Assembly (NCBI GenBank): GCA_031408335.1
Contig: JANNWH010000014.1
Location: 8,784-72,783 of the forward strand
Length of the DNA: 64,000 bases
Reading direction: 5' to 3'
DNA from: Flavobacteriales bacterium
GTDB taxonomy: Bacteria; Bacteroidota; Bacteroidia; Flavobacteriales; Flavobacteriaceae
Below, piece by piece: positions 35,266 through 53,082 of this stretch. Positions within the stretch are counted from its first letter, which is position 1. The number at the start of each line of letters is the position of its first letter. Below the pieces are notes generated by a model, which searched no databases, was not told where the DNA came from, and was given only the letters and a program-made list of their open reading frames with translations. A program made the position numbers and the translations under genes.

Positions 35266-36807
35266 ATGAAAAAATCAGTATTGCTTTTTGCATTATTAAC
35301 TACATTCATTATTAATTCACAATCATTTGAATGGGTAAAAACGCCTCCTATTGTATTCAATTCGTCGCCATCTTCAATAGGATATACTACAGTTTGTGAC
35401 ACTTTTGGAAACATATATGTAACCGGATTTGTAAATAATTTGTATACCAATAATGGTTCATATGGTGATATATTTTATAACAAATATGATAATTCAGGTC
35501 AATTACTGTTTTCTAAAACCATTACTGGAAAAGCCCAGGTATATGATATTCAGAGTGATTCATCTGGAAATATTTATGTTGCTGCTGCTTATTTTCAATC
35601 TATGACTATTGACAACACTACTATTTCGACAACTTCTCAAACTGTAAAACCTTTGTTACTAAAATTTAATGCTGCAGGAACACTTTTATGGCATATTGAA
35701 ATATCGAGTTTTAATACATCCATAAATTATTTTAATTCCATTGCAATCGATAACACTGATTCGCTTTATATAGGTTATTCCAATTATAATTTTTCATATG
35801 TAAAAAAATTAGACACAAATGGCAATGTGCTTTTAACTATTGAACAACAAAATGTAAGTATAATTTCGTCAGTTAGTGTTGACGATGAAGGATATATTTA
35901 TACAGCTGGTTCTTGTGCCAATTCCAATTCAAAGTTTGCGAATGTAACCGTGCCAGCCACTTTTTCATACAATTCTTATTTAGCAAAATATTCTCCAACT
36001 GGAGTTTATCAATGGGTAAAATTTGTACAAGATTTTTCTTGTTTAGAACCACAAGTAAAAGCTAAAAGTCAAAATGAAGTCTATTTTAGTTCAACTCTAA
36101 ATGGAGCTTATTCATTTGATAATATCACAGCTTCAGGTCCGATTGGTGGTTATGATTTTTTTATTGCCAAACTCAATTCTACAGGAGTTTTCCAATGGGT
36201 TCGTGAAGCTCCTGTAAATGGAAAAGCTTATGTTGGTAAAAGAAATTTTCTTAGTTTAGACAATTTTGGTAATATTTACTTTGCAGGAAGTACATCCGGA
36301 ACTATAAATTGGGGAAACAATATAACTACAGTGTCAACTATTTATCAGGATGGATTGATTCTTAAATATAATCCAAGCGGAACAATATTGATGGCAAAAA
36401 CTGCAGGAGGAGCAGATACTGATCGTTTTGATGGGGTTACGACAAATAATTTAGGTGATATATTTGTTTCTGGAATAGTTCGAGGAACTACAAATTTTGA
36501 TGCCATTCAGCATGTGGAAACGAATCCATTTAAGTTTTATCCAATTCTAGCAAAAATCAATAGCACCAATTTAGATGTTACATCATTTAATGTTGAAACT
36601 GCTAAATTATATCCAAATCCAACTTCTGATTATTTTTATATACACAATGCTAAAATGTATTCTAAAGGTCAAATTTACACAGTTTTAGGTGAAAAAATTA
36701 AAGATTTTGAAATCAACACTACTTCAGTTTCTATTAGTGAGTTATCAACTGGAACTTATTTTATAAAATTAGAAGATAATACAACTTTTAAATTAATAAA
36801 ATCTTAA
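35266..36807 (+). CDS. T9SS type A cargo protein with beta-propeller (SBBP-like) repeats
   Basis: Signal peptide; repeated D..GNIYV.G / LAKY...G..QW; CTD LYPNPTSD...ISELSTGTYFIK...FKLIK. Confidence 0.88.
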   Translation: MKKSVLLFALLTTFIINSQSFEWVKTPPIVFNSSPSSIGYTTVCDTFGNIYVTGFVNNLYTNNGSYGDIFYNKYDNSGQLLFSKTITGKAQVYDIQSDSSGNIYVAAAYFQSMTIDNTTISTTSQTVKPLLLKFNAAGTLLWHIEISSFNTSINYFNSIAIDNTDSLYIGYSNYNFSYVKKLDTNGNVLLTIEQQNVSIISSVSVDDEGYIYTAGSCANSNSKFANVTVPATFSYNSYLAKYSPTGVYQWVKFVQDFSCLEPQVKAKSQNEVYFSSTLNGAYSFDNITASGPIGGYDFFIAKLNSTGVFQWVREAPVNGKAYVGKRNFLSLDNFGNIYFAGSTSGTINWGNNITTVSTIYQDGLILKYNPSGTILMAKTAGGADTDRFDGVTTNNLGDIFVSGIVRGTTNFDAIQHVETNPFKFYPILAKINSTNLDVTSFNVETAKLYPNPTSDYFYIHNAKMYSKGQIYTVLGEKIKDFEINTTSVSISELSTGTYFIKLEDNTTFKLIKS

Positions 36808-39150: not shown

Positions 39151-39774
39151 TTAATTAATCAAGCTAGTAATTTCTTCACTCATCGGAGTAATTTTAGATG
39201 GAAATACAGCTATTAATTCACCATTTTCATTAATTAGGTACTTTTGAAAATTCCATTCTACTGTACTATCTTCTAAACCATTTTTACCTTTTTGAGTTAA
39301 AAACTCATAGATATCACACTTATCTTTTCCGTCTACTGATACTTTTTCCATCATTGGAAAAGTAACTCCGTAATTTTTAGTGCAAAATGCTTTAATTTCC
39401 TTATTTGTACCAGGCTCTTGACCACCAAAATTGTTTGTAGGAAATCCGACAATTACAAAATTTTCTTTTATATATTTTTGATATAACTCTTCTAATTCTT
39501 TATATTGAGGAGTATAGCCACATTCTGATGCAGTATTAACAATTAGTATTTTTTTTCCTTTTAGTTTTAGAAAATCAAATTCTTTTCCGTCAATATCTTT
39601 TACTTTGTATGAATAAATAGTAGGCTTGTTCATTGTTTTTGTACTTTTTGTTTCTACAGATTTAGTATTAGAAATAGGTGAAGTTGTTTGTAATTTATTT
39701 TTATTATCCTGAGCATTGCTTTGATTACAAAATAGAACTACTACACCACAAATTAAAGAAAATAAATTTTTCAT
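39151..39774 (-). CDS. Exported glutathione peroxidase family protein
   Basis: VNTASECGYT, GFPTNNFGGQEPG, WNFQKYLI; signal peptide. Confidence 0.92.
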   Translation of the reverse strand: MKNLFSLICGVVVLFCNQSNAQDNKNKLQTTSPISNTKSVETKSTKTMNKPTIYSYKVKDIDGKEFDFLKLKGKKILIVNTASECGYTPQYKELEELYQKYIKENFVIVGFPTNNFGGQEPGTNKEIKAFCTKNYGVTFPMMEKVSVDGKDKCDIYEFLTQKGKNGLEDSTVEWNFQKYLINENGELIAVFPSKITPMSEEITSLIN

Positions 39775-39940
39775 AAATAAATTTTTAAAAATTAAAAAAC
39801 AAAAATAATTATATCTGATTAGAATCCTAAATTTTTAACAAAATAAATTAAAATAAAAGCCCAATAAAAAAGATTATTGAGCTTTTAAACAACAAACAAA
39901 ACACTCGAGGCTACGCCGAACTGAGCGAAGCTAAACCTAA

Positions 39941-42154
39941 TTAAAATCTGTACGTTACTTTTCCTTTTAAAAAGAAAGGTGTTCCAGGAGTAAAATGAAT
40001 TTCTTCAACACTTTCTGATTCGTTTTGCAATTGCGATTCGGTTGCAAATTGCGTTTCATTCCATTTGGTATTAAAAATGTTTTCTGCAGAAATTCCGAAA
40101 GTGATATTTTTATAATCATAATTTAAATTTAAATCAGAAACCATATAGCCTTTGGCTACAATCGAATTGTCTTCGTTTGCTGGACGCGATTTTAAATAAC
40201 GATAATGAAATCCGCCTGAAAAACCTTTATACTTAGTTAAATTTAATCCAGCTGTAGAAGTAAAATCGGGTGCTAACGGAATAAAATCTTGTCCTTTTGG
40301 TTCGTCTATACTTCTTCCATAAGTATAATTTAAATCGGTATCAAAAAACAAGTAATTGGTGAGTTGGTAACGCAATCCAAAATCGATTCCTAGTCTACGT
40401 GATTTTCCGCTTGGCTCTACTATTCCGGCATCGCCAACATAAACAAATTCTTGTTCTAAATCTAAAAACCACAGCGCAGTATTGACTATGAGTCGTGGAA
40501 AAGGTTTAAAAATAGTTCCCAAGTCAACACCTAATGCAGTAGGCAAAATTGATTTTCCAGATTGCTCTACAACAACACGAGTATCATTAGAATGGAAACC
40601 TAAACCTGATTTTAAAAACAACTGAAAATTAGCATTTTGCGAATAGATAAAATTTAGTTTTGGAGATAATTTTACTTTATCTTCACTTAGCGTTTTATAA
40701 TTAATAGCTAATTTGTCTTGGTAATTAAACTTAAAATAATCAAATCTTATTGCTGGATTTATTTTTAGTTTACCAAAATCAAATTCCGAATTTAAATACG
40801 AGAAAATAGTGGTTTGATCGATATCACCTAATTTCAAACTCACTAATGTTGTACTTCTATTAACTGTGTGTGAAAGTTCGGTATTGGTTGTTTCATCTGC
40901 TCGAAATCCGAATCCAAGTTGAAATAAAGCTTTAGAATTATTAATTGTAACTTTTTTATTGACTTCTGAATTCAAACCATAAATATTTCTACTTTCTTTT
41001 TGTCGGATTTGATCACCGTTAATTGGATCCTCTAAGAAAAAGGTGAAATTTGAATACAATTCGAAATCATAATTAGAATAAAACGCATTCGATTTCACAA
41101 AAGTTGTTTCATTAATTGGCTTAGTGTAGGCAATATTAAAATTAGTTCGTGAGGTTTTTCCGCCTTCAGTATCATCAACAGAGCCAAATCTGGAAATAGA
41201 ACCGTTATCGATTAATCGTTGCGGAATTTGACCAGAAGCATCCCATTTACTGGTAAAACGCGATCCAATAATTGATATCTTACTGTTGTTATTTAAAACA
41301 CTGGTGTATTTTCCGAACAGATTAATTCGTTTAAAGTTTTGAGGCGAATCAAACGGACCATCTGTTAAAACATATTCGGTTGCAAAATAGGCGTTTTGAT
41401 TTTTCTTGTTTTCTAAAAGATTAAAAATTCCAACAGTTCGTATCGTATTAAATTGACCTGCTTCGATACTTATTGCGCTTTTATCAAATTTTTCTTTAGT
41501 TTGAAAAGCCACATAACCAGCCGTCGCAAAATCGCCTTTATCAGCATAATAAGTTCCTTTACCATAGTCGATTTTTTCAATGGTTTCTGGAATCACAAAA
41601 TGCAAATCGGCGTAACCTTGTCCGTGCGCATGTGAAACCATATTTACCGGCATTCCGTCAACAGAAATCGCAATATCAGTTCCGTGATCGATATCAAAAC
41701 CACGCAGGAAAATTTGCTCTGCTTTGCCTCCACCAGCATGCTGACCGATGAATAATCCGGGTACTTTTCGCAAGATTTCTTGAGAAGAATTTACCGGATT
41801 TGTTTGCAAATCAATTTTAGATATTACATTCATTGCGTTCAATTTTGATTGAATAACGACTTCATCTAATTTATAATTATCTAATTCTAAAACTATTCTT
41901 ATTTCGTTTGAATTAACCGTGTAATTTATTTTTTTGTAACCTAAACATGAAATGATAAGGATATCATTTATTGCTGTTTTATCGATAAAAAACTGACCAA
42001 ATTCATCTGTATGAGCGTGCGATTGAGAAGCTGAATTAACAATGTATGCGTTTTCAATTGCAATTGAATTACTATCTAAAACAATACCTTTTTGAATTTG
42101 ACTGTATGAAGAAAACATAATAAACATAAGAGCTAATGATAAAATTGATTTCAT
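39941..42154 (-). CDS. TonB-dependent receptor with HAHGQG plug motif
   Basis: LRKVPG, QHAGGGKAEQIFLRGFDIDHG, VSHAHGQGYADLHF; C-terminal YRF. Confidence 0.92.
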   Translation of the reverse strand: MKSILSLALMFIMFSSYSQIQKGIVLDSNSIAIENAYIVNSASQSHAHTDEFGQFFIDKTAINDILIISCLGYKKINYTVNSNEIRIVLELDNYKLDEVVIQSKLNAMNVISKIDLQTNPVNSSQEILRKVPGLFIGQHAGGGKAEQIFLRGFDIDHGTDIAISVDGMPVNMVSHAHGQGYADLHFVIPETIEKIDYGKGTYYADKGDFATAGYVAFQTKEKFDKSAISIEAGQFNTIRTVGIFNLLENKKNQNAYFATEYVLTDGPFDSPQNFKRINLFGKYTSVLNNNSKISIIGSRFTSKWDASGQIPQRLIDNGSISRFGSVDDTEGGKTSRTNFNIAYTKPINETTFVKSNAFYSNYDFELYSNFTFFLEDPINGDQIRQKESRNIYGLNSEVNKKVTINNSKALFQLGFGFRADETTNTELSHTVNRSTTLVSLKLGDIDQTTIFSYLNSEFDFGKLKINPAIRFDYFKFNYQDKLAINYKTLSEDKVKLSPKLNFIYSQNANFQLFLKSGLGFHSNDTRVVVEQSGKSILPTALGVDLGTIFKPFPRLIVNTALWFLDLEQEFVYVGDAGIVEPSGKSRRLGIDFGLRYQLTNYLFFDTDLNYTYGRSIDEPKGQDFIPLAPDFTSTAGLNLTKYKGFSGGFHYRYLKSRPANEDNSIVAKGYMVSDLNLNYDYKNITFGISAENIFNTKWNETQFATESQLQNESESVEEIHFTPGTPFFLKGKVTYRF

Positions 42155-43449
42155 TATAATTGCACTATTTTGTTAGTGTAAATTGGACCAAGTTCATATT
42201 CACTTCCTTTTAATTCTTCTTTAATTAATGCTACTTCATCACCCTTTTTATTGGCTTTATAAATTACCGCTAGATGATAATTGAGCATTGGTTCGAATGA
42301 TTTTCCATAAACATATTGCTGTGCAATTTCAAATGCTTTTTTGGTATCACCAACATTAAAATATGCCCAAGCCAATAAATCATACGAATCTGGAGTTGGT
42401 CGTTGTGCTACTTCAATTTTAGCAATTTCTAGTGCTTTTGAAGCTGTTATTTTATCATCAGCATAAATTAAAGTATTGTATTTATTATACATCGCACCAT
42501 ATTTAGTATTCTCAAGCATTTTGAAATATTTATCTAAATTTTCTTTTTTATCTGAAGTATTATTTTCAAATTGAGCAATTTTTGATTTTAATAAATAAAA
42601 ATCGGGTGTATCATGTTTTTGAGAAATTTTATCAATAATTCGTTTTGCTTCTGCAGTATTTTTTTCGTGAGAAAATGCAATCCAAGCAATTCCTTTTAAA
42701 GCATAACTATGATTGGGTTCTAATGCTAATGTTTTTAGATAATAATTATAAGAAGCATTTATGTTTCCGTCATGACCATTTAAATCACCTAAATTAGAAT
42801 AAGTCCATTTTATCAGATCTTTATTTTCGTTTACCTCAGCAACGATTTTAGCTTTTTCCATAAAAGAAATAGCTGTTTTTAAATCGCCTTTGTGATCGCT
42901 CCATTTTGAAATTCTAATTAAATAATCAAAATCTTTAAAATCTTTAATTGCATTCAGGTTTTTTTCAGCTTCTGAATAATTCCCTAATTCCATATTGACA
43001 TCAAAAAGCAATTTCTGAGTTTCTTTCATTCCTTCACCAATAGCCAAAGCTTTATTAGCTAAAACTAGTGCTTCTTTAAATCGATGTTGCGAAATGTAAT
43101 TTCTGGCTAAAGAACGAATAGTTCCTACAATTGAATATTTATAGGTTTCATTAGATTTTATTAATAATTCTTCTGTTTTAATTAAATAATCAATGTTTCC
43201 AGTAATTTCAAAAAGCTTAGAATAGTTGGATGCTATTGGACTTAAAAAAGTAATTTGATTTGGAGTAGCATCGAATTTTTTTTGCCAAAAATCGATTTCA
43301 CTTTTAGCAAAGTCGAGTGATTTACTGTCTTTACTATCTAAATATTTATTATAATCGTTTTGATTTGTAATTTGATTTGATTTTGATTCACAACTTATTA
43401 TGCTATAAGAAGCAAAAACAAGGATCAATAGTTTTTGTAGCGTTTTCAT
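42154..43449 (-). CDS. TPR-repeat lipoprotein
   Basis: Lipobox IISC; helical TPR pattern; overlaps the TBDR start. Confidence 0.85.
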   Translation of the reverse strand: MKTLQKLLILVFASYSIISCESKSNQITNQNDYNKYLDSKDSKSLDFAKSEIDFWQKKFDATPNQITFLSPIASNYSKLFEITGNIDYLIKTEELLIKSNETYKYSIVGTIRSLARNYISQHRFKEALVLANKALAIGEGMKETQKLLFDVNMELGNYSEAEKNLNAIKDFKDFDYLIRISKWSDHKGDLKTAISFMEKAKIVAEVNENKDLIKWTYSNLGDLNGHDGNINASYNYYLKTLALEPNHSYALKGIAWIAFSHEKNTAEAKRIIDKISQKHDTPDFYLLKSKIAQFENNTSDKKENLDKYFKMLENTKYGAMYNKYNTLIYADDKITASKALEIAKIEVAQRPTPDSYDLLAWAYFNVGDTKKAFEIAQQYVYGKSFEPMLNYHLAVIYKANKKGDEVALIKEELKGSEYELGPIYTNKIVQL

Positions 43450-43479
43450 TCTGTTTGTTGTTTTGTTGTTTTGTTAAAA

Positions 43480-43509
43480 AACAGAGCGCAATAAGTACTG
43501 CGCTCTGTT
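43480..43509 (-). terminator. Hairpin after DUF4331 lipoprotein copy 2
   Basis: AACAGAGCGCA-ataagtac-TGCGCTCTGTT. Confidence 0.7.
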
Positions 43510-43519
43510 ATTATTTATA

Positions 43520-44065
43520 CTACCAAGAAGCAGCTAAATAAGGAAATGATGGTAAAAATGCTTTATCATTAGCATTTACGTTATCCGAAGTTAATGTTGG
43601 ATTCAAAGCATTCGTTGGTCCACCAAAAATTAAAATCAATTCCACATCAATTACATCATCAGCTAAGCCTCTACCTGTTAAAACTTGTGTTCCGTTATAG
43701 AAAGAAGTAGGTCCGGTTTTTGCAACACCTAGAACATCAGTTGCTAAAACACCTGTAAAAGCAGCAGCATCTAATCCGAGTAAGTTTGTAGTATAACCAG
43801 GATTCAAAGCTAATAATCTTGACTGAAAAATAGGTTGATAAGTAGCACCCTGAGCTGAAGGAATTGCTAAATTAAATGCATCTTTTGGAGCACCAGATGC
43901 AATAAAAACAGTATTAATTGCTGGACGTGCCATTTGATCTTTTAGTAAATAAGTTCCTGAAAAATCGGTTTCTGCTGCTGGAGCATCATCATCATTATCA
44001 CAACTTGTAAATGCAACAGCTGTTAAAACAGATAACACTATTACTTTAAATTTATTTGTCTTCAT
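43520..44065 (-). CDS. DUF4331-like lipoprotein (C-half motifs), copy 2
   Basis: Lipobox FTSC; DQMARPAINT, GRGLADDVID, FPYLAASW. Confidence 0.8.
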   Translation of the reverse strand: MKTNKFKVIVLSVLTAVAFTSCDNDDDAPAAETDFSGTYLLKDQMARPAINTVFIASGAPKDAFNLAIPSAQGATYQPIFQSRLLALNPGYTTNLLGLDAAAFTGVLATDVLGVAKTGPTSFYNGTQVLTGRGLADDVIDVELILIFGGPTNALNPTLTSDNVNANDKAFLPSFPYLAASW

Positions 44066-44091
44066 TTTTTTTACTTTTTAAATTTTAATTA

Positions 44092-44745
44092 TTATTGTTT
44101 TTGTTTTGTTTCTGCCCAAACATTAATGGTTGCAGATGTACCTAACATCGATTTTGGAACTTCAATTATTGTAGCTAAAACATTTGTGCCAGCAAAACTG
44201 TCGGTTCCAGGATTACTAAATCCGCCGGGTGATGTTCCTGCTAAAATTGATCTGAATTTGTTTAAATCAAAAAAGAAAGGATCGTCTCGTGGACCAGCAA
44301 AAAATTTCATTCCGTTTTGTGTTGCAATAATTGGAGCACTTCCGTAAGTAGAAATATCTACATTTCCAGAAGGAGCATTAGTTTTAACAGTACTTGAAAC
44401 GCCTGTTGTTCCTGGAGCAGTTGGTCCGAAGAAATACATTTTGTTTCCTCTTTTAATAGCTTGGATAACTAAATCTTCAACATTGTCGCCATTATTATCA
44501 ATATTAAGTTCAATCATTACATTCTCATTGAATGCAGCAGCAGCAGTAGCTCCTGGAGTTAATAAACCTTGGGTATTTATTGCAAATACCATGTTGTTAG
44601 TGTCTTGCCCTTGAAAAGCGTACACATCGGTAATGTCATTTGCATTACCTGTTACTGCTGGCGCATCTGCGTGATCGGCAGCAATAAAAATTAGACCTGA
44701 AATCGCAACTAACGATAGACCTACGAACATTTTTGTTTTTTTCAT
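44092..44745 (-). CDS. DUF4331 family protein (N-half motifs), copy 2
   Basis: ADHADAP, DITDVYAF, GPRDDPFFFD, DSFAGTNV. Confidence 0.85.
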   Translation of the reverse strand: MKKTKMFVGLSLVAISGLIFIAADHADAPAVTGNANDITDVYAFQGQDTNNMVFAINTQGLLTPGATAAAAFNENVMIELNIDNNGDNVEDLVIQAIKRGNKMYFFGPTAPGTTGVSSTVKTNAPSGNVDISTYGSAPIIATQNGMKFFAGPRDDPFFFDLNKFRSILAGTSPGGFSNPGTDSFAGTNVLATIIEVPKSMLGTSATINVWAETKQKQ

Positions 44746-44774
44746 TGTTATATGTTTTAATGAGTTAAAAAAGG

Positions 44775-44804
44775 ATATACGAGTAAAAATTGTTTTTGGT
44801 TTTA
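44775..44804 (-). promoter_or_regulatory. Candidate ECF promoter
   Basis: TAAAACC-N16-CGTATAT on minus strand. Confidence 0.65.
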
Positions 44805-44835
44805 ATAATTGAAAAAATATTATTTTAATTGAAAA

Positions 44836-44867
44836 AATCAGAGTGCAATACTTATTGCACTCTGATT
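44836..44867 (-). terminator. Hairpin after DUF4331 lipoprotein copy 1
   Basis: AATCAGAGTGCAATA-ct-TATTGCACTCTGATT. Confidence 0.75.
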
Positions 44868-44875
44868 AATTTATT

Positions 44876-45448
44876 TTACCAAGCTGACGCTAAGTAAGGA
44901 AATGAAGGCAAAAAAATTTTGTCATTTGAATTAACATTATCCGATGTTAATCCAGGATTTGAAGCACCAGTTGGTCCGCCAAAAACTAATAATAAATCAA
45001 CATTAATCACATCATCTGCCAAAGCTCTTCCTGTTAAAATATTAGTACCATCAAAGAAAGTAGTTGGAGCAACTTTACTAACATTCAAAACATCTGTTGC
45101 TAACAATCCAGTTAATTGAGAAGCTGTTTGACCCAATGCATTGGTAGTATAACCTGGATTTAAAGCTAATAATCTTGACTGAAAAACACCTTGATAAGCA
45201 GCACCCATTGCAGATGGAATAGCAAAGTTAAATGCATCTTTCGGTGCTCCAGAAGCAATAAATACTGTATTTGTAACTGGTCGTGCCATTTGATCTTGTT
45301 GTACATAGGTACCTGAAAATTTTCTTCCCGGTCTAGCTAATTGATCAGTATTAGTCTCGTCTATACTATCATTATTATCACAACTAACAAAAAGAGCTGA
45401 TAAAGAAATAAATGATAAGGCTATAATTTTAAAATTTAATGTTTTCAT
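44876..45448 (-). CDS. DUF4331-like lipoprotein (C-half motifs), copy 1
   Basis: Lipobox FVSC; DQMARPVTNT, GRALADDVIN, FPYLASAW. Confidence 0.8.
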   Translation of the reverse strand: MKTLNFKIIALSFISLSALFVSCDNNDSIDETNTDQLARPGRKFSGTYVQQDQMARPVTNTVFIASGAPKDAFNFAIPSAMGAAYQGVFQSRLLALNPGYTTNALGQTASQLTGLLATDVLNVSKVAPTTFFDGTNILTGRALADDVINVDLLLVFGGPTGASNPGLTSDNVNSNDKIFLPSFPYLASAW

Positions 45449-45471
45449 TTTATATTTTTTATTTAAATTAA

Positions 45472-46122
45472 TTATTGTTTTCTATTAGTGGTCGCCCAAA
45501 TGCTAATTGTAGAGGAATTACCTAACATTGATTTTGGCAACTCAATTATAGTTGATAACACATTTGTACCCGCAAAACTGTCTGTACCAGGATTACTAAA
45601 CACAGTTGAAGTACCTGCTAAAATTGATCTAAATTTATTCAAATCAAAAAAGAAAGGATCATCTCTTGGACCAGCAAAAAATTTCATCCCATTTTTAGTT
45701 TTGATAATTGGATCACTTCCATAAGGTGTAATTTTTACTTTTCCAGATTCTTCACGATCATCAATTTCGCTGTTTACTCCTGTAGACTCTGGTGCATAAG
45801 GACCAAAGAAATACATGTCTTTTTTGTCTCTAATAGCTTGGATAACTAAATCTTCAACATTATCACCATTCGTGTCAATGTTAATTTCTTGCATAACATT
45901 TTCGTTAAAAGCAGCAGTAGCAGTAGCTCCTGGCGATAACAATCCTTGGGTATTTACTACAAATACCATGTTGTTGGGATCTTGCCCTTGAAAAGCATAC
46001 ACATCGGTAATGTCATTTGCATTACCAGTTACAGCTGGAGCATCTGCGTGATCGGCTGCCATAAAAACCAGACCTGTAATCGCCACCAGCGACAGAACTA
46101 ATACAATCTTTGTTTTTTTCAT
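45472..46122 (-). CDS. DUF4331 family protein (N-half motifs), copy 1
   Basis: Same motifs as 44092-44745. Confidence 0.85.
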   Translation of the reverse strand: MKKTKIVLVLSLVAITGLVFMAADHADAPAVTGNANDITDVYAFQGQDPNNMVFVVNTQGLLSPGATATAAFNENVMQEINIDTNGDNVEDLVIQAIRDKKDMYFFGPYAPESTGVNSEIDDREESGKVKITPYGSDPIIKTKNGMKFFAGPRDDPFFFDLNKFRSILAGTSTVFSNPGTDSFAGTNVLSTIIELPKSMLGNSSTISIWATTNRKQ

Positions 46123-46150
46123 TTTAATTAATTTAAAGGGTTAAAAATAG

Positions 46151-46180
46151 ATTTACGAGAAAGCTTACCATTTGGATTTA
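46151..46180 (-). promoter_or_regulatory. Candidate ECF promoter
   Basis: TAAATCC-N16-CGTAAAT on minus strand. Confidence 0.65.
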
Positions 46181-46274
46181 TAAAACATAAAATAATTCGC
46201 AAACATCTGTTTTACAATATTTTATAAATTATTTTTTATAAATTAATTTTGTTTTGAAAAAAAAATTATATTTA

Positions 46275-46304
46275 TAAAACCAAAACAAAAAAACTCTCGT
46301 ATAT
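46275..46304 (+). promoter_or_regulatory. Candidate autoregulatory ECF promoter
   Basis: TAAAACC-N16-CGTATAT upstream of the sigma gene. Confidence 0.65.
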
Positions 46305-46331
46305 GTTCACAACAACAAAAAAACAAAAACA

Positions 46332-46862
46332 ATGAGTCAAGAAGAATTAATTCCGTTAATCCTTAAGAAGGATGAACGGGCGTTTACTATCCTATATGAT
46401 ATGTATTCGAAGAGTTTATTTTCGGTAATTTCAAATTTTTTAAAAGAGAGCGAAGATGCTGAAGATGTTTTACAAGAAGTATTTGTGAAAATATGGAAAA
46501 GTATTGATAGTTATAATGAAAGTAAAGGAAGGCTATATACTTGGATGCTTAATATTGCAAGGAACACTTCAATTGATAAATTGCGCTCTAAAGGATTCAA
46601 CAACAGTCAAAAAAACCTATCAGCAGATAATTTCGTACATCTATTGGACGACAGTAACAAATTAATCAATAGGATCGATACTATTGGAATTCGAGAATTT
46701 GTTGCTAAATTAAAACCAAAGTGTATTCAATTGATTGAATTATTATTCTTTCAAGGATTTACACAACAAGAAGCTTCCGACGAATTAGAAATTCCGTTGG
46801 GAACTGTAAAAACGCAAAATAGAAATTGCATCAATGATTTAAGAACCTATTTAAAAGTATAA
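46332..46862 (+). CDS. ECF RNA polymerase sigma factor (SigK-like)
   Basis: AEDVLQEVFVKIW, WMLNIARNTSIDKLR, EIPLGTVKT. Confidence 0.93.
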   Translation: MSQEELIPLILKKDERAFTILYDMYSKSLFSVISNFLKESEDAEDVLQEVFVKIWKSIDSYNESKGRLYTWMLNIARNTSIDKLRSKGFNNSQKNLSADNFVHLLDDSNKLINRIDTIGIREFVAKLKPKCIQLIELLFFQGFTQQEASDELEIPLGTVKTQNRNCINDLRTYLKV

Positions 46863-47650
46863 TGAGTACAATAGAAACAATAAATTCAGGCGATTTAGAG
46901 CTTTACGTTTATGGTGTATTAAACGAAAATGAAATGAATCAAATTGCAGAACTATCAAAATCAGATAGTGCAATAAAAAACGAAATTATATCGATTGAGA
47001 ATAGTATTTTACAATTATCCAGTAGCTTTTCTCCTACCATTTCTTCAGAAATTTATGAAAAAATTAAAACTAAATTAGGTTTAAAACCTGTTAGTATTGT
47101 TACGATGAAACCAAAATCAAATCTTTCGCAATATTTAAGTTGGGCAGCATCTTTAGCATTGTTAATTGGAATTGGTTATCAATACAACAAACAAATTACT
47201 ACCGAAAATAAAATAGTAACTATAGAAAAAGAAAAAGTAAAATTGAACGAGGCTGTTGCAACTTCTGAAGGTAAAATAAAAGAAACAAAAGCAGCTTTAG
47301 ATATTATTAGAGATACCAAAAACACCGTTATAACTCTTGGCGGACAAGCAGTTTCTCCAACATCGTATGCAAAAGTATATTGGAATAAAGAAACTCAAGT
47401 AGTTTATGTTGATGCTGCTGGATTACCAGAACCTCCAACCGGAATGGTATATCAAGTTTGGTCACTAAAATTGAGTCCGACTTTAACACCAACAAGTATT
47501 GGATTATTAGAAGATTTCAAATCGGATAACAATAGGATTTTTGCTGTAAGTACTACTGGCGATGCCGAAGCATTCGGAATTACATTAGAACCAGCTGGTG
47601 GAAGTAAAACGCCAACAATGGAACAATTATATGCATTAGGAAAAGTGTAA
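46862..47650 (+). CDS. RskA-type anti-sigma factor
   Basis: LELYVYGVL N-terminus, one TM, LPEPPTGMVYQVW, AFGITLEPAGGSKTPT. Confidence 0.9.
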   Translation: MSTIETINSGDLELYVYGVLNENEMNQIAELSKSDSAIKNEIISIENSILQLSSSFSPTISSEIYEKIKTKLGLKPVSIVTMKPKSNLSQYLSWAASLALLIGIGYQYNKQITTENKIVTIEKEKVKLNEAVATSEGKIKETKAALDIIRDTKNTVITLGGQAVSPTSYAKVYWNKETQVVYVDAAGLPEPPTGMVYQVWSLKLSPTLTPTSIGLLEDFKSDNNRIFAVSTTGDAEAFGITLEPAGGSKTPTMEQLYALGKV

Positions 47651-47773: not shown

Positions 47774-48016
47774 TTAAGGATTCTCTTCCCATAATTTTTT
47801 TACAGCTTCCCAAACCTTCATTCGTAATTCATCCCGACGAAAAACACTATTGTTTGTTGTATATTTTTCAAGTGTTTCTTGTAATAGCTGTAGTTCTTTT
47901 GCTACAGCAGGATAATCATGACACATGATTTCTACTTTTTTTTCTTCTTCATTTGTAAGTACTCCAAGGCAATAATCTTGAAGTATCCCACTTGTGATAT
48001 AGTTTCCTATATTCAT
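47774..48016 (-). CDS. Stand-alone anti-sigma-domain-like protein (80 aa)
   Basis: YITSGILQDYCLGVLTNEE resembles the N-terminus of the 46862 anti-sigma; follows a sigma gene. Confidence 0.7.
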   Translation of the reverse strand: MNIGNYITSGILQDYCLGVLTNEEEKKVEIMCHDYPAVAKELQLLQETLEKYTTNNSVFRRDELRMKVWEAVKKLWEENP

Positions 48017-48065
48017 TTGTTTATTTTATTATTTAATAGTATGCGAATTATAAAAAAATAACTTT

Positions 48066-48686
48066 CTATTGTTGATAAAGCATTTTTAACAAACTAAGTC
48101 CTTTTCTTGCTCTAGTTTTTATTGTTCCCAATGGCAACTTTAAAATTTCAGCCGTTTGTTCTTGTGTCCAGCCATAAAAGTAAATTAAATCAATCACTTC
48201 GGAATATATTGAGTCAAGTTGTAATGCTTTGTTTTTAAAGTCAGAAAATTCTATAGAGCAACTGTTTAAAATTGTATTTCCAATAGTATCCTTACAATGA
48301 GAAAAAAAATCAATTTCTACTTGAAGCTTTTGATTCCGATAACTTGATGAACGTAAGTAATCAATGGCATGGTTTCTAGCTATATTTAACATCCAAGTAT
48401 ATATAGAACCTTTAGAATTGTCATAACTACCAATGTATTTCCATATTTTTACAAAAGTATCTTGCAATAAATCATCAGCTACTTCTGTTCGTTTAACAAG
48501 TTTTATAATCACTCCATAAAGTGCTCCACTATACATAGTATATAAAGTGTGAAAGCCTCTTTCGCTTTTAGATTGAACCAGCTTTACTAGTGAATCAAGA
48601 TCATTATTTGAGTTACAAAACTTAGTATCGCTACTTTTAAATACTGTTATAACTTGTCGTTTTGAATAAGTAGTTGTTGCTATCAT
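48066..48686 (-). CDS. Second ECF sigma factor
   Basis: ADDLLQDTFVKIW, WMLNIARNHAIDYLR, LPLGTIKTRAR. Confidence 0.9.
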   Translation of the reverse strand: MIATTTYSKRQVITVFKSSDTKFCNSNNDLDSLVKLVQSKSERGFHTLYTMYSGALYGVIIKLVKRTEVADDLLQDTFVKIWKYIGSYDNSKGSIYTWMLNIARNHAIDYLRSSSYRNQKLQVEIDFFSHCKDTIGNTILNSCSIEFSDFKNKALQLDSIYSEVIDLIYFYGWTQEQTAEILKLPLGTIKTRARKGLSLLKMLYQQ

Positions 48687-48908: not shown

Positions 48909-49718
48909 ATGCAGGAAAATAGTTTGAGAAAGATGCAGGATGCAGATTTCCTGTATAAAAAGATTGTTGCCATGTCATCTTCGTTTTTTATGAACGATAC
49001 TATTGGAGAGGTAGAACGATTTAGAGAAGAAGCGAATCTGCTACTTAACGGAATAAGAGGTACCGATGCGGTTATTGGGATATTTGATCACCTCAATTAC
49101 ACTCCAGTTTTAGAAGTAGGAGAAAAAGAATTTTGGGGTGAACTTCCCGAAGTACCTCAAGCTGAGAGAATGATTCAGATTATGAGCTTGCTTGAAAAAG
49201 AGTATTTGACTTTTTTTACCGATTCCGTAAAGTGGTTCACTGGAATGCTAGAGGAGATTCCTTTTGCTCAAAGAATGAACATACAAATCTTTCACTGTGG
49301 CATTAGATACACGCTTTTGGATGGCAAACCAATCTGCCTTTTTTCGAAAGGTTCTCCAATTCATTACGATGAAAATAGGAAATTTAATTACACATTTAAT
49401 TATGTTCAAAACATCAATCACCTTCTTAAAAAGAATTTTAGGGAATATTGGATACGGATCTCACATGGAGAAAACAGTGAATATATTCACACATTTCATT
49501 CCCAAGATAAACTGTATTCCAATAAAGATTTATTGTCTGTAAGGGAAAAAGAGATTTTAAGACTAATCGCTGATGATTTGGATACAAAAGAGATAGCTGA
49601 AAAATTATTTATTAGTATAAATACCGTTGGTAATCATCGTGGAAAGATGATTGACAAAATGGGAGTTAGAGATTCAACGGCATTGGTACAAATGGCAAAA
49701 ATGTCTGGAATTATATAA
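48909..49718 (+). CDS. LuxR-family regulator with uncharacterised N-terminal sensor domain
   Basis: C-terminal LSVREKEILRLIA...IAEKLFISINTVGNHR. Confidence 0.88.
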   Translation: MQENSLRKMQDADFLYKKIVAMSSSFFMNDTIGEVERFREEANLLLNGIRGTDAVIGIFDHLNYTPVLEVGEKEFWGELPEVPQAERMIQIMSLLEKEYLTFFTDSVKWFTGMLEEIPFAQRMNIQIFHCGIRYTLLDGKPICLFSKGSPIHYDENRKFNYTFNYVQNINHLLKKNFREYWIRISHGENSEYIHTFHSQDKLYSNKDLLSVREKEILRLIADDLDTKEIAEKLFISINTVGNHRGKMIDKMGVRDSTALVQMAKMSGII

Positions 49719-49809: not shown

Positions 49810-52800
49810 TTATTTCTTCAAAACCTTTTTGTATTTTATAAAAGCAAACGTCGCTAAAACAATAACAAATCCAAGCGAATAGAAAACAAAAGATGGAGTT
49901 ACTACTTTATCACCACTGGCATAAGAATGCAATCCTGTGAGGTAAAAATTCACACCAAAATACGTCATCATTATCGAATAAAAAGCCAAAACACTCATCA
50001 AATTAAAAACCCATTTGCCTCGCAAAGCAGGAACAAATCGTGCATGAATAACAAAAGCATAAATCATAATACTAATTAAAGCCCAAGTTTCTTTTGGATC
50101 CCAACCCCAATAACGTCCCCAACTTTCGTTTGCCCATTGTCCGCCTAAAAAGTTACCAATAGTTAACATTACTAGTCCAATGGTTAAAGCCATTTCGTTG
50201 ATATAGGTAATCTCTTGAATATGCAAATCCATTTTCACCTTATTCTTTTCATTAACAAATAGCATAAGTACTAACGAAACCAATCCTAAAATCATTCCTA
50301 ATGTAAACGGACCATAACTTGCTACAATGACAGCAACATGAATCATTAACCAATACGAATTTAAAACAGGTTGCAAATTAGCAATGGCTGGATCCATCCA
50401 ATTCCAATGCGCAATCATTAAAATCATTGAAGTTACAAACGTTCCTGAGGCGATTGTTAATTTTGATTTTCTGTCAAAAGCCAATGTAAAAAACATAGTT
50501 GCCCAAGCTACATAAATCATACTTTCATAAGCATCACTCCATGGTGCGTGACCAGAAATGTACCAACGAACTATTAATCCTAAAGTATGAATTCCGAAAA
50601 GCAAACCAATAATAATATGAAATCCGTTTACTACAAAGCGAAGTATTTTGCTTTCAAAAAAGATATTTACAATAACAATCAAAAGCATAATACAACCAAA
50701 AGTCATGTACAACCAAAATAAGTTTTTGAAAACATCGTATTTATTATACAGTATTTCTGATGAAATTTTGTCTTCACTTGGTCGGATTTTACTACCATAT
50801 CTTATTTGAAATTTCTCCAAACCTAAAACCATGGTATTTGCTAATGTATAATCTTTAGTTTTTGAAGCATTTGCTAATGATTCTAAATACAAAGGAAAAG
50901 CCGATTTAATAGTATCTAAAGCGGTTCCGGTTAGTTCGTTTAATTCTAAGTTAGAAACCCATTTATTATTTTTATCATTCGGAATTGGATAAATTTTTAG
51001 AATACTACCAAATAAAGCTGAATTCAAAAGATTCACTTTTTTATCGGTTTCTATAAAATCTTTTTGAAATTGATTCGGAATTGCCGATTTGTAGGCTTCA
51101 TCTAAATAAGGAGACAATTTATAATTTCCTTTGGCATCAAAAAAACTTTTAAAACTAACATATTTATCTTTTGGCTTTGCTCCTATTATTTTTCGAATAC
51201 TGTCGTTACCATTTTTAATGTAAATCAACGGAACTTCAATCCATGCAAAAGGAAATTGCTTAATAGATAAAAATACCTGATCAGAATTCATTCCGTTATA
51301 ACCGTCTTTTTTACTTACTTTTCGCAATAATTCAGACGAAAAAGTATTGATTGGTTTCATTCTTCCACCATCATCTTGAATTACTAATCGTCCAAATTTT
51401 TCCGCCTGAAGTTCGGGTACTTTGTATTTGGTTATAGAATCTAAATAATTAATATTAGCATTATTTGTTGGATGATTTTGAGAAAATCCATTTAAAGAAA
51501 ATAAAATAAAGAGTACAGAAAGTAGTTTTGATTTCTTAGATTTTACATTTTCTAGTTTTCTTTTCAAATCTGCAAAACGAGAATGTTTGGTAAATAAAAT
51601 TGCCATCATAGCAAAAAACAACATAAAGTAACCAATGTAGGTTATTAAAGTTCCCCAAAAATCGTGGTTGACAGAAAGTATTGTTCCTTTTTCATCTGGA
51701 TCGAATGACGCTTGAAAAAAACGATAACCTTTATGATCTAGAATATTATTCATGTAAATGTGTGAATTGAAGCTTTTAGGCTGATCAAGAACAGTGACTT
51801 TACTCTCGTAAGAAGAATAACTTTTTTCAGTTCCTGGATATTTTTTCCCAATAAAGTCATTCAGTTTAATACTAAATGGCAAATTATACACTTTACTTCC
51901 GTAGAATAGAGTAAAATCGAGTTTGCCAACTTTAACAACTTTGGGTTGACCAATACTTCCTTTAGAACCAACAAGCGTAATTTCTTTAGTTTCACCATCT
52001 GATTCAACGGATAGCGTTAAAGCATCTTCCCCTTTTTTATTTTTATAATCACCACTCGATTTAAAAGATTTCTTTCCTGTTAAAGGAACTTCCGGAAAAA
52101 CAAACTGTGCGCCACCAACACTATACAACGAACGATACATCAATTTTTGCAACGAATCTCGGACTACTTTCCCTTGAAATTTATCAGCCATTCTCATAAA
52201 TTGACCATCAAAAGGAGTGGTTATTGTATTGTTTTTAGAATCGATGTTTATTGCGCCTTTGGTTGGAATATCTAAAGCAAAAAGTAAGTTATGAATATTT
52301 TGAACTTCACCCGCTTTTAAATAATGTTCGTGTCGAGAACCTTCGCTAGATTCTACTAATTTTATATACAAATCTCCTTTATTGGATGCAACTACGGTTT
52401 CTTTTGCATCCATTACAAAATCCTTGTAGCTTATTTCAAAAGGAGTTTTATCGAATTTTTCATTGATAGAAAAGTTATTATTAGTGGCTTGAGATAATAA
52501 CAAAGATTTTTCAATTGTACGTCGTTTAATTTGACCACGGAAATCACCATCAATAAAAACGGTTAAATAATTTTTATCAGAAAAAAACTGATTTGAAGAT
52601 GCTCCTTCTCGAATTGGCATCATTCCTTCATAACTTATGTAACGTGTAATTATAGCACCTAAAATAATAAATACAAAAGAAAAATGCAACAATAAAGTAG
52701 CCCATTTTTCTTTTTTAAATAACTGATAGCGTTTCATATTTCCGAAGAAATTAATAAAGAAAAACAGATGGATCGCTTCAAACCACCATGAATTATAAAT

Positions 52801-52929
52801 AATTATTCTAGCAGTATCGGTATTATAATCGTTTTCAATAAAGGTTCCAATTGCCATTGAAGCGGCATACGTTAAAAATAACATAGCCATTAAACGAGTT
52901 GAGAAAAGAATAGATTTTAATTTTTCCAT
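49810..52929 (-). CDS. ccsA: Cytochrome c biogenesis CcsB-CcsA fusion (System II)
   Basis: SWWFE, GYRFFQAS, WANESWGRYWGWDPKETW, GLHSY; ATG at 52929, -7 box TACTTTTG at 52971-52978. Confidence 0.92.
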   Translation of the reverse strand: MEKLKSILFSTRLMAMLFLTYAASMAIGTFIENDYNTDTARIIIYNSWWFEAIHLFFFINFFGNMKRYQLFKKEKWATLLLHFSFVFIILGAIITRYISYEGMMPIREGASSNQFFSDKNYLTVFIDGDFRGQIKRRTIEKSLLLSQATNNNFSINEKFDKTPFEISYKDFVMDAKETVVASNKGDLYIKLVESSEGSRHEHYLKAGEVQNIHNLLFALDIPTKGAINIDSKNNTITTPFDGQFMRMADKFQGKVVRDSLQKLMYRSLYSVGGAQFVFPEVPLTGKKSFKSSGDYKNKKGEDALTLSVESDGETKEITLVGSKGSIGQPKVVKVGKLDFTLFYGSKVYNLPFSIKLNDFIGKKYPGTEKSYSSYESKVTVLDQPKSFNSHIYMNNILDHKGYRFFQASFDPDEKGTILSVNHDFWGTLITYIGYFMLFFAMMAILFTKHSRFADLKRKLENVKSKKSKLLSVLFILFSLNGFSQNHPTNNANINYLDSITKYKVPELQAEKFGRLVIQDDGGRMKPINTFSSELLRKVSKKDGYNGMNSDQVFLSIKQFPFAWIEVPLIYIKNGNDSIRKIIGAKPKDKYVSFKSFFDAKGNYKLSPYLDEAYKSAIPNQFQKDFIETDKKVNLLNSALFGSILKIYPIPNDKNNKWVSNLELNELTGTALDTIKSAFPLYLESLANASKTKDYTLANTMVLGLEKFQIRYGSKIRPSEDKISSEILYNKYDVFKNLFWLYMTFGCIMLLIVIVNIFFESKILRFVVNGFHIIIGLLFGIHTLGLIVRWYISGHAPWSDAYESMIYVAWATMFFTLAFDRKSKLTIASGTFVTSMILMIAHWNWMDPAIANLQPVLNSYWLMIHVAVIVASYGPFTLGMILGLVSLVLMLFVNEKNKVKMDLHIQEITYINEMALTIGLVMLTIGNFLGGQWANESWGRYWGWDPKETWALISIMIYAFVIHARFVPALRGKWVFNLMSVLAFYSIMMTYFGVNFYLTGLHSYASGDKVVTPSFVFYSLGFVIVLATFAFIKYKKVLKK

Positions 52930-53082
52930 TGAAAAATATAATAGTTTTAATTCCCGTGTCTTCGGGAGCACAAAAGTAAAATAAAATTGTTGATTTTTAG
53001 GTTTAATAGTTGTCGATTTAAGTGTTTTTTAAGAGACGTTGACTAAATATTTTTATTCAAATAAAATTAATAATTTAGCAAA

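Follow-up and report, generated by a model that had tools for sequence, protein, structure and literature searches.

What is the function of the gene cluster at positions 39941–47650 of a 64,000-nucleotide stretch of DNA from a Flavobacteriales bacterium (GenBank assembly GCA_031408335.1, contig JANNWH010000014.1, positions 8,784 to 72,783 of the forward strand; hereafter, the window), in which two pairs of genes of the DUF4331 family, a gene for a tetratricopeptide repeat (TPR) lipoprotein and a gene for a TonB-dependent receptor are transcribed divergently from genes for a SigK-like extracytoplasmic function (ECF) sigma factor and an RskA-type anti-sigma factor? The source host is a Flavobacterium, and the window has a guanine-cytosine content of about 30%. 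The locus is best explained as the version, in Bacteroidota, of an envelope module that is widespread and uncharacterised and stands under SigK/RskA-type control. The module would most likely capture a divalent transition metal and bring it through the outer membrane, with copper or nickel favoured. More specifically, we give slightly less than even chances to the reading that, under the control of SigK/RskA, a DUF4331 complex of two chains captures a transition metal, which is then imported with the help of TonB. The nine open reading frames (ORFs) match exactly the coordinates given in an earlier prediction made from this DNA (the original prediction), which had described six co-oriented exported proteins divergent from a SigK/RskA-like pair; coordinates, domains and export signals all agree with that description. 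Signal peptidase I (SPase I) signals are found on the two N-terminal DUF4331 proteins and the receptor, and lipoboxes on the two C-terminal DUF4331 proteins and the TPR protein, and the Pfam matches confirm two DUF4331 pairs, a TPR lipoprotein and a TonB receptor.

Within the 2.88-Mb source genome, DUF4331 is confined to positions 43520–46122 of this locus, all on the minus strand. The proteins that we call N-half A (45472..46122, 216 aa) and N-half B (44092..44745, 217 aa) match the DUF4331 profile (PF14224) with 90.4 and 86.2 bits, respectively, against a cut-off of 27, their best stretches running from 146 and 151, respectively, to 238. C-half A (44876..45448, 190 aa) and C-half B (43520..44065, 181 aa) match the same profile with 46 and 43.4 bits at positions 368–420. 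Because N- and C-halves match successive parts of one profile, a single DUF4331 domain is divided between two genes, and the pair is present twice. Copies A and B share 77% identity in their N-halves and 66% in their C-halves. Such duplication is rare (3 of 60 Flavobacteriaceae genera), and copy B, which is linked to the TPR and receptor genes and is the best match for 73 of 81 orthologues, is the ancestral pair.

A search of 1.84 billion representative proteins returned 1733 DUF4331 relatives (representative clusters), of which the nearest are split proteins of 215–240 aa and the more distant are unsplit proteins of 340–460 aa; for C-half A, the clusters of similar length number more than 3000, and among named relatives the C-half protein is closest to that of F. 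luteum, with 82% identity. The structure model of an unsplit relative (predicted local distance difference test (pLDDT) score 77.5, core above 90) shows a beta-sandwich, the part corresponding to the N-half, followed by a helical subdomain, the part corresponding to the C-half. The split point falls in a variable loop that joins two adjacent strands of this model, so the opening strand of the C-half is expected to pair with the closing strand of the N-half. Compared with the PDB, the unsplit model found no match with E below 0.05; the best stood at E 0.05, and the only resemblance of the beta-sandwich core was a weak one to carbohydrate-binding modules (E >=0.05). The fold thus gives no functional clue, and the literature searched contains no mention of DUF4331 or PF14224, nor any experiment on a member of the family.

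The two halves differ in how they are exported. The C-half is a lipoprotein throughout its relatives, with the lipid-bearing cysteine at Cys23 in C-half A and at Cys22 in C-half B, followed in both by an acidic tether (C-DNNDS and C-DNDDD, respectively). The consensus after the lipid cysteine is C-x-[N/K]-D-D-D, and an acidic pair was counted in 53 of 82 C-halves, which is an undercount; among TPR lipoprotein orthologues it occurs in only 1 of 51. The lipoprotein export signal of Bacteroidota has been defined experimentally as C-X-K-(D/E)2-X, with SDDDD and SDDFE as further forms (PMC5080379), and by its consensus the C-half tether fits this signal, so that surface export of the C-half is predicted. 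The N-half carries an SPase I signal and thus would present a free processed N-terminus. Since a chain whose N-terminus bears a lipid anchor cannot also have that end free and processed, division into two chains may be what allows one complex to have both features.

Both N-halves read ADHADAP, the start singled out in the original prediction, and across the family the signal peptide is followed at once by [AS]-D-H-x-[DE]-x-P. Among the 189 signal-bearing relatives, the residues that follow the signal are ADH in 157 and SDH in 27, together 184; cleavage directly before [AS]DH fits the -1/-3 rule in 173 of 189, compared with 102 of 189 when the site is shifted by one residue. Asp24 and His25 are invariant in the N-half alignment. 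The predicted mature end of N-half A, A23-D24-H25 (46048–46056, minus strand), and the same predicted A-D-H end of N-half B conform to the sequence rule of an amino-terminal Cu(II)- and Ni(II)-binding (ATCUN) site, namely His at position 3 and no Pro at position 2. Thus, the predicted NH2-Ala-Asp-His end has the form of an ATCUN site for Cu(II) or Ni(II). Many invariant aspartates also occur, in the motifs IDxxGD and RDDPFFFD and in DxDGD-like motifs.

Is the cluster a unit, or a chance neighbourhood? We compared 80 related loci from named genomes, all of Bacteroidota and all with a split DUF4331, spanning Flavobacterium, Winogradskyella, Gelidibacter, Chitinophagaceae, Saprospiraceae, Cytophagales and Sphingobacteriales; counts of neighbours use only those loci with enough flanking sequence. 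The conserved order is N-half, C-half, TPR, TonB receptor: the C-half lies directly 3' of the N-half in 71 of 78 loci, the TPR gene is present in 59 of 63 and the receptor gene in 49 of 63 (both in 48), and a sigma/anti-sigma pair lies within 10 kb in 28 of 48. All-against-all clustering of the neighbours showed that only these six families are kept beyond genus-level synteny. Furthermore, in a sample of one genome from each of 151 Flavobacteriaceae genera, the N-half was present in 60 (about 40%) and a clear RskA orthologue in 66; 58 genera had both, 2 had DUF4331 only, 8 had RskA only and 83 had neither (Fisher p 3e-30, a value that ignores phylogeny). The cluster is conserved as a module rather than brought together by chance, and the co-occurrence on which the original prediction had staked itself is found both in the ordered block across Bacteroidota lineages and in the genome-wide link to the RskA orthologue.

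A promoter motif ties the two DUF4331 units to the sigma factor. The sequence TAAAWCC-N16-CGTAWAT has three matches in the window, each 27–29 nt 5' of an ATG codon: TAAAACC-N16-CGTATAT, 27 nt 5' of the sigma gene (46275..46304, plus strand); TAAATCC-N16-CGTAAAT, 28 nt 5' of the gene for N-half A (46151..46180, minus strand); and TAAAACC-N16-CGTATAT, 29 nt 5' of the gene for N-half B (44775..44804, minus strand). None of 100 shuffled windows reached three matches. The AAC...CGT layout of the motif is typical of ECF promoters. A relaxed version, A[AT][AT]CC-N15-17-CGTA (in short form AAWCC-N15-17-CGTA), was found 5' of the first N-half gene in 61 of the 80 related loci, including 29 of the 46 outside Flavobacterium, compared with 15 of 1005 (1.5%) of the other upstream regions of the same loci, and the spacers of the conserved motif are unrelated in sequence among loci. 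This shared ECF-type motif at the sigma gene and at both DUF4331 units, kept so widely, argues for the co-regulation by this sigma factor that the original prediction had supposed.

The motif 5' of the sigma gene itself has a narrower distribution, being found only here and in the closest relatives (L001–L003 and L028), and autoregulation is therefore a local feature; most Flavobacterium relatives (L005–L035) have instead a TAnnTTTG housekeeping-type promoter (GTATAAGTTTGTAA) at the sigma gene, and autoregulation seems to be a recent change. Outside the locus, the relaxed motif has two matches in the genome. One lies 32 nt 5' of a fasciclin gene (C19:19732-20355; L082:2233-2859), which is likely a further, unlinked member of the regulon. 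The other (C9:174233-174260; L081:3233-3260, minus strand) lies 133 nt 5' of a 139-aa ORF that has no family match and stands upstream of MarR and nitroreductase genes; this match is probably due to chance, since the reversed control pattern is commoner than the motif itself. In nine of the related loci a fasciclin gene lies directly 5' of the N-half gene, and seven of these nine carry the motif. In other genera, 7 of 30 orthologous fasciclin genes likewise have the motif 5' of them; all 30 of these genomes contain an RskA orthologue, and 28 contain DUF4331. In tubercle bacilli, SigK/RskA controls the fasciclin genes mpt70 and mpt83, and a minimal mpt83-sigK-rskA cassette has been reported from distant genera, Yersinia among them (PMC7509140, PMC10540498).

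The sigma factor (46332..46862, plus strand, 176 aa) consists of regions 2 and 4 only (Pfam Sigma70_r2 and r4), and its best NCBIfam match is SigK (PRK09646), with 104 bits, under the curated cut-off of 226. Of 44 orthologues, 84% share its cysteine C131 and likewise 84% its C166; a conserved cysteine pair is a trait of ECF18/ECF19 and of the redox-sensitive SigK (PMC7826278), and in M. tuberculosis SigK the pair senses oxidation (PMC7826278, PMC7509140). Directly 3' of the sigma gene, with a start that overlaps its stop codon at 46862, lies the gene for the membrane anti-sigma factor (46862..47650, plus strand, 262 aa), which matches RskA_C with 65 bits (Pfam, cut-off 29.4) in its extracytoplasmic part and whose most hydrophobic 19-residue stretch is 88–106. 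The stimulus of the mycobacterial SigK/RskA system has been described as obscure (PMC9861118). A second SigK-like sigma factor (206 aa), with a divergent LuxR-type regulator adjoining, is encoded nearby in the window (47774-48686, minus strand; 48909-49718, plus strand). Its anti-sigma factor is an 80-aa stub without a membrane or sensor part, an arrangement also found in the relative L003, and cross-talk of this second sigma factor with the DUF4331 promoters is possible.

The operon anatomy suggests that the DUF4331 pair is made in excess. N-half and C-half genes are separated by about 26 nt. A stable hairpin followed by a T run lies 3' of the C-half gene in 53 of 53 related loci, with a different sequence in each; here, unit A ends in an intrinsic terminator with a 14-bp stem and a T run (44836..44867, minus strand), and the interval between the C-half B and TPR genes contains a terminator-like hairpin with a T run that is probably an attenuator (43480..43509, minus strand). 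The gap between TPR and receptor genes is -1 to 10 nt in most loci, and in the window the receptor start overlaps the TPR stop codon (ATGA). Taken together, hairpin and coupling would leave the DUF4331 pair in excess, with the TPR lipoprotein and receptor produced by read-through; an excess of binding protein over its transporter is the usual pattern. The TPR lipoprotein (42154..43449, minus strand, 431 aa), recognised by TPR Pfam families, has its lipid cysteine at Cys20 and no acidic export motif after it. An intrinsic terminator (39854..39887, minus strand) closes the unit after the receptor gene.

The receptor (39941..42154, minus strand, 737 aa) contains a Plug domain (58 bits, Pfam cut-off 23.9) and a CarboxypepD_reg_2 domain, and LDEVVIQS at residues 96–103 (41846..41869, minus strand) is a segment that looks, by eye, like a TonB box. 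Its structure model (pLDDT 81) has the plug-and-barrel fold with 22 strands, for which Foldseek returned template modelling (TM) scores of about 0.7 to PqqU, FoxA, FecA and FhuA, with PqqU as the top match, and of 0.62 to OprC. By sequence profile, the closest solved full-length relatives are PqqU and YncD (E 1e-13). Since matches of sequence and fold are generic, with 11–17% identity to every receptor class, the specificity of the receptor cannot be read from its relatives. Six histidines, H139, H157, H175, H177 and H185 in the plug and H521, are invariant in 54 receptor orthologues. The five plug histidines lie in the segment HAGGGKAEQIFLRGFDIDHGTDIAISVDGMPVNMVSHAHGQGYADLH (41600..41740, minus strand) and have no counterpart at the corresponding positions of other solved receptors; in a model that is good elsewhere, confidence is low and reaches its minimum in two of the His-bearing loops, 140–143 and 173–181. 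Translation bears out the plug motif HAGGG...DHG...HAHGQG of the original prediction, as it does the ADHADAP start. Two familiar arrangements were considered for the cluster and rejected: Fec-type surface signalling, as Pfam and NCBIfam found neither a receptor signalling domain nor a FecR-type anti-sigma factor in the cluster, and a SusC/SusD pair, as no SusD family match was found there. The alignment of the receptor with SusC homologues is limited to the N-terminal extension and the start of the plug.

Other lineages supply a further clue to the substrate. We examined 80 metagenome loci of unsplit DUF4331, at which an operon of the order ECF-RskA-DUF4331-TPR-NicO recurs (TPR in 37 loci, RskA in 15, ECF in 12 and NicO in 11); one of the 80 proved to be split, with a receptor in place of NicO. 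The NicO permease (PF03824), of about 540 aa, follows DUF4331-TPR in loci L088, L099, L118, L131, L133, L142 and L143, and has a signal peptide, then an ectodomain with a predicted mature His1 (HPLGNFTINHY), and a cytoplasmic poly-His loop (HDHDHDH). A NicO permease thus takes the place of the receptor in other phyla. In further metagenome loci a 160-aa protein with a Tat (twin-arginine translocation) signal is encoded 3' of the DUF4331 gene instead of NicO. In eight Chitinophagaceae-type loci (L042, L057, L064, L065, L067, L069, L070 and L072), a gene for a His-rich membrane protein stands between those for the C-half and the receptor; the protein is about 120 aa long, five or six of its histidines are conserved, and it has the cluster AH.F..EH.AT.VH..GK.H.H, a C-terminal YPPPK/R and no Pfam match. 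The hint at metal in the original prediction gains strength from three features that are independent of one another, the conserved NH2-X-X-His end, the invariant plug histidines and NicO in the place of the receptor, which together point to a metal substrate.

Two further genes deserve attention. The gene sodC, for a periplasmic Cu,Zn superoxide dismutase lipoprotein, is single-copy in 110 of the 151 genomes. It lies directly 5' of sigK-rskA on the same strand in 35 of the 66 genera with an RskA orthologue, and within 5–8 kb in 9 more; examples of the sodC-sigK-rskA cassette are genomes G014, G110, G045 and G106 and loci L002, L038, L040, L047 and L054. In five sodC cassettes examined, no ECF motif was found 5' of sodC, and the literature searched contains no description of this cassette. 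Since its product is a Cu,Zn enzyme, the linkage of sodC also counts among the clues to a metal. In the source genome, sodC was rejected as a regulon member, being located elsewhere in the genome with no motif near it. Matches to nickel superoxide dismutase (Ni-SOD) were found in 0 of 151 genomes, the control likewise matching nowhere. The second encodes a glutathione peroxidase (39151-39774, minus strand) with a signal peptide and a Cys active site, and 18 Flavobacterium loci have it 3' of the receptor gene; thiol peroxidases that are exported depend on a reductant in the periplasm. The original prediction was right that an exported peroxidase follows on the same strand, but it forms a separate transcription unit: given the intervening terminator (39887-39854), the lack of an ECF motif and a linkage found only within Flavobacterium, the peroxidase is a neighbour rather than an operon member.

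The analysis shows directly which genes are present, in what order and how well conserved, the promoter motif and how widely it is kept, the genome-wide co-occurrence, the conserved residues and the exchange of the receptor for a NicO permease in other lineages. From these findings we infer where the N-half is cleaved, that a metal is bound and which one, in which direction it is transported, how the two halves assemble, where they reside and what signal induces the module, and the following mechanism would accommodate them. An envelope or redox signal would relieve inhibition by RskA and activate SigK, which would transcribe its own operon, the two DUF4331 units and the unlinked fasciclin gene from AAWCC-N16-CGTA promoters. 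The two chains of each DUF4331 unit would assemble extracytoplasmically into one DUF4331 fold: SPase I would cut the N-half to leave NH2-Ala-Asp-His, exposing an ATCUN-type Cu(II)/Ni(II) site, and the lipoprotein C-half would tether the pair to the outer membrane, the split letting one complex combine a free N-terminus with an N-terminal lipid anchor. The hairpin after the C-half gene would keep the capture protein in excess over the translationally coupled TPR lipoprotein and receptor. Finally, the receptor would accept the metal on its invariant cluster of plug-loop histidines for import via TonB, with the TPR lipoprotein as an adaptor on the periplasmic face. A bolder version, which we regard as doubtful although worth stating, would make the DUF4331 proteins a new class of extracytoplasmic metal-capture proteins, one that spans phyla and has a fold still to be solved, in which a processed NH2-X-Asp-His end grips Cu(II) or Ni(II) and hands it over, with the aid of the TPR protein, to a His-plug receptor in Bacteroidota or to a His1-NicO permease elsewhere; the whole pathway would then be the physiological output long sought for SigK/RskA and would be tied to the supply of SodC, and the split in Bacteroidota would be an adaptation that joins a free metal-binding N-terminus to a lipid anchor.

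Several observations weigh against metal capture and import as we propose it. The case for metal binding is drawn from sequence logic, the N-terminal segment is of low confidence in the structure model, and the invariant aspartates of IDxxGD and RDDPFFFD could instead be structural calcium sites. The clues to the metal disagree, the ATCUN form pointing to copper or nickel, sodC to copper or zinc and NicO to nickel or cobalt; copper, as the overlap of the ATCUN-form and sodC clues, is a choice that we hold loosely. The import route is incomplete, since a NicO permease is absent from the source genome and the locus has no linked transporter for the inner membrane. In the RskA ectodomain alignment there is no conserved His, Cys or Met, and direct sensing of a metal by RskA is thus unlikely. 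There is also an unexplained conflict of topology between the surface-export-like motif of the C-half and the Sec signal alone of the N-half. The His loops would correspond to the three plug apices that touch the substrate, a placing that depends on the register with the RGF motif of FhuA. Likewise, the neglect of phylogeny by the co-occurrence statistic counts on this side.

In another explanation, the cluster would protect the envelope against oxidative stress rather than feed the cell: SigK/RskA, switched on by superoxide, peroxide or light, would work alongside SodC and the exported peroxidase, and DUF4331 would sequester or remove a redox-active metal or a damaged envelope component at the surface. 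The position of sodC directly 5' of sigK-rskA in more than half of the genera with RskA speaks for such a role, as do the exported peroxidase 3' of the receptor in the 18 Flavobacterium loci, the conserved cysteine pair of the sigma factor, which is an oxidation sensor in M. tuberculosis SigK (PMC7826278, PMC7509140), and the induction of SigK targets by light in M. kansasii (PMC9861118). Yet no ECF motif is found at sodC or the peroxidase gene here, nor at sodC in the five cassettes, the peroxidase linkage is confined to one genus, and a receptor of the TonB-dependent type, like the NicO permease that replaces it elsewhere, implies passage through a membrane, not buffering at the surface; we consider this explanation unlikely. 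Uptake of an organic substrate or cofactor, such as a quinone-type cofactor, a tetrapyrrole or a foreign metal chelate, would cast DUF4331 as a hemophore-like or SusD-like binder and the conserved histidines as ligands of the organic molecule. The profile search would favour it, with PqqU, the transporter of pyrroloquinoline quinone (PQQ), and YncD closest (E 1e-13) and PqqU the top Foldseek match, and receptors of Bacteroidota often partner surface lipoproteins, to which the export-signal-like motif of the C-half could correspond (PMC5080379). However, identity to PqqU is only 16% and all receptor classes score about equally, no biosynthetic or catabolic genes are linked, and a NicO-type cation permease with a poly-His loop outside Bacteroidota is at odds with an organic substrate, which leaves this account distinctly improbable.

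The link to fasciclin raises one more alternative, a calcium-stabilised surface or adhesion structure co-regulated with fasciclin, in which DUF4331 would be a structural or adhesive protein with a beta-sandwich and the receptor and TPR protein would serve mainly in its anchoring or assembly. Consistent with this are the promoter motif of the fasciclin gene, the presence of DUF4331 in 28 of the 30 fasciclin genomes, the many invariant aspartates in DxDGD-like motifs and the beta-sandwich core with its weak likeness, at E >=0.05, to carbohydrate-binding modules only. This alternative leaves unexplained the invariant plug histidines, the X-X-His end and the replacement by NicO, and TonB-dependent receptors are not known as assembly factors; we give it a slim chance.

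How does metal capture by DUF4331 compare with what is already known? Extracytoplasmic binding proteins that serve a receptor include HmuY, which partners HmuR in the heme uptake of Porphyromonas, and protein metallophores such as azurin with OprC and TseM with MnoT. As in HmuY-HmuR-type partners, an abundant extracytoplasmic binder is encoded just 5' of the receptor and is lipid-anchored in a Bacteroidota outer membrane, and delivery of a metal or metal complex to the receptor is the proposed role. In contrast, DUF4331 is unrelated to these binders in sequence and fold, has two chains and a TPR partner, and is under the control of SigK/RskA rather than of Fur, CueR or a similar regulator. The copper receptors OprC/NosA and the zinc receptor ZnuD likewise are TonB-dependent receptors in which ligands of metal type form a dedicated cluster. 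OprC has Cys, Met and His as ligands within its barrel, and ZnuD has its ligands in surface loops, whereas here they would be five invariant plug-loop histidines, in a receptor with about 14% sequence identity to those proteins. DUF4198 (nickel), DUF6702 and the anglerase-HupE/UreJ fusions (PMC12537917) share with DUF4331 a processed N-terminus as the proposed metal site beside a permease, and the NicO near unsplit DUF4331, with its predicted mature His1, resembles the published fusions in layout. Unlike these N-terminal-His capture proteins (PMC12537917), DUF4331 has its His at residue 3 (ATCUN type) and not at residue 1, a different and unsolved fold, and here an outer-membrane receptor as its partner.

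On the regulatory side, the pair resembles mycobacterial SigK-RskA (ECF19) and the Yersinia cassette in its RskA_C ectodomain, its overlapping genes and the cysteine pair of the sigma factor, and the very small regulon with a fasciclin gene under a sigma-specific promoter is another point in common (PMC7509140, PMC10540498). It differs in its main targets, which here are DUF4331, a TPR lipoprotein and a receptor, none of them described in the mycobacterial regulon, in the sodC gene that precedes the pair in many Flavobacteriaceae, and in a sigma factor that falls below the NCBI cut-off for SigK. With FecA-FecR-FecI the locus shares an ECF sigma factor, a membrane anti-sigma factor and a TonB-dependent receptor encoded together; unlike FecA, the receptor here is without an N-terminal signalling domain, and the anti-sigma factor is without a FecR domain, which makes the receptor a target of the sigma factor rather than its sensor.

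The remaining genes of the region stand apart from the module. A GNAT gene, a thiamine pyrophosphate (TPP) enzyme gene and CcsBA are, like the peroxidase, linked to it only within Flavobacterium. One flank (35266-36807, plus strand) encodes a protein that combines beta-propeller repeats and a sorting domain for type IX secretion, and the other (49810-52971, minus strand) a cytochrome c biogenesis protein of 1053 aa in which ResB and CcsA are fused and which is syntenic with the locus in many Flavobacterium genomes.

In summary, the logic of the locus, which combines a binding protein, a receptor and an ECF sigma factor, is familiar; the protein family, its pairing with this regulator, the links to sodC and fasciclin and the split domain are not described in the literature searched. 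DUF4331 comprises 1733 clusters with no studied member and no solved relative, and this locus supplies a precise, testable model for it, including a defined promoter, a regulon, partners and a candidate ligand site. The family is now tied to SigK/RskA, and tractable environmental bacteria could help to find the natural signal of this regulatory system. If the proposed capture and import hold true, they would constitute a new outer-membrane route for copper or nickel and would explain the supply of the periplasmic Cu,Zn superoxide dismutase, and DUF4331 would offer a clear case in which topology is the reason why a domain is divided between two exported chains.

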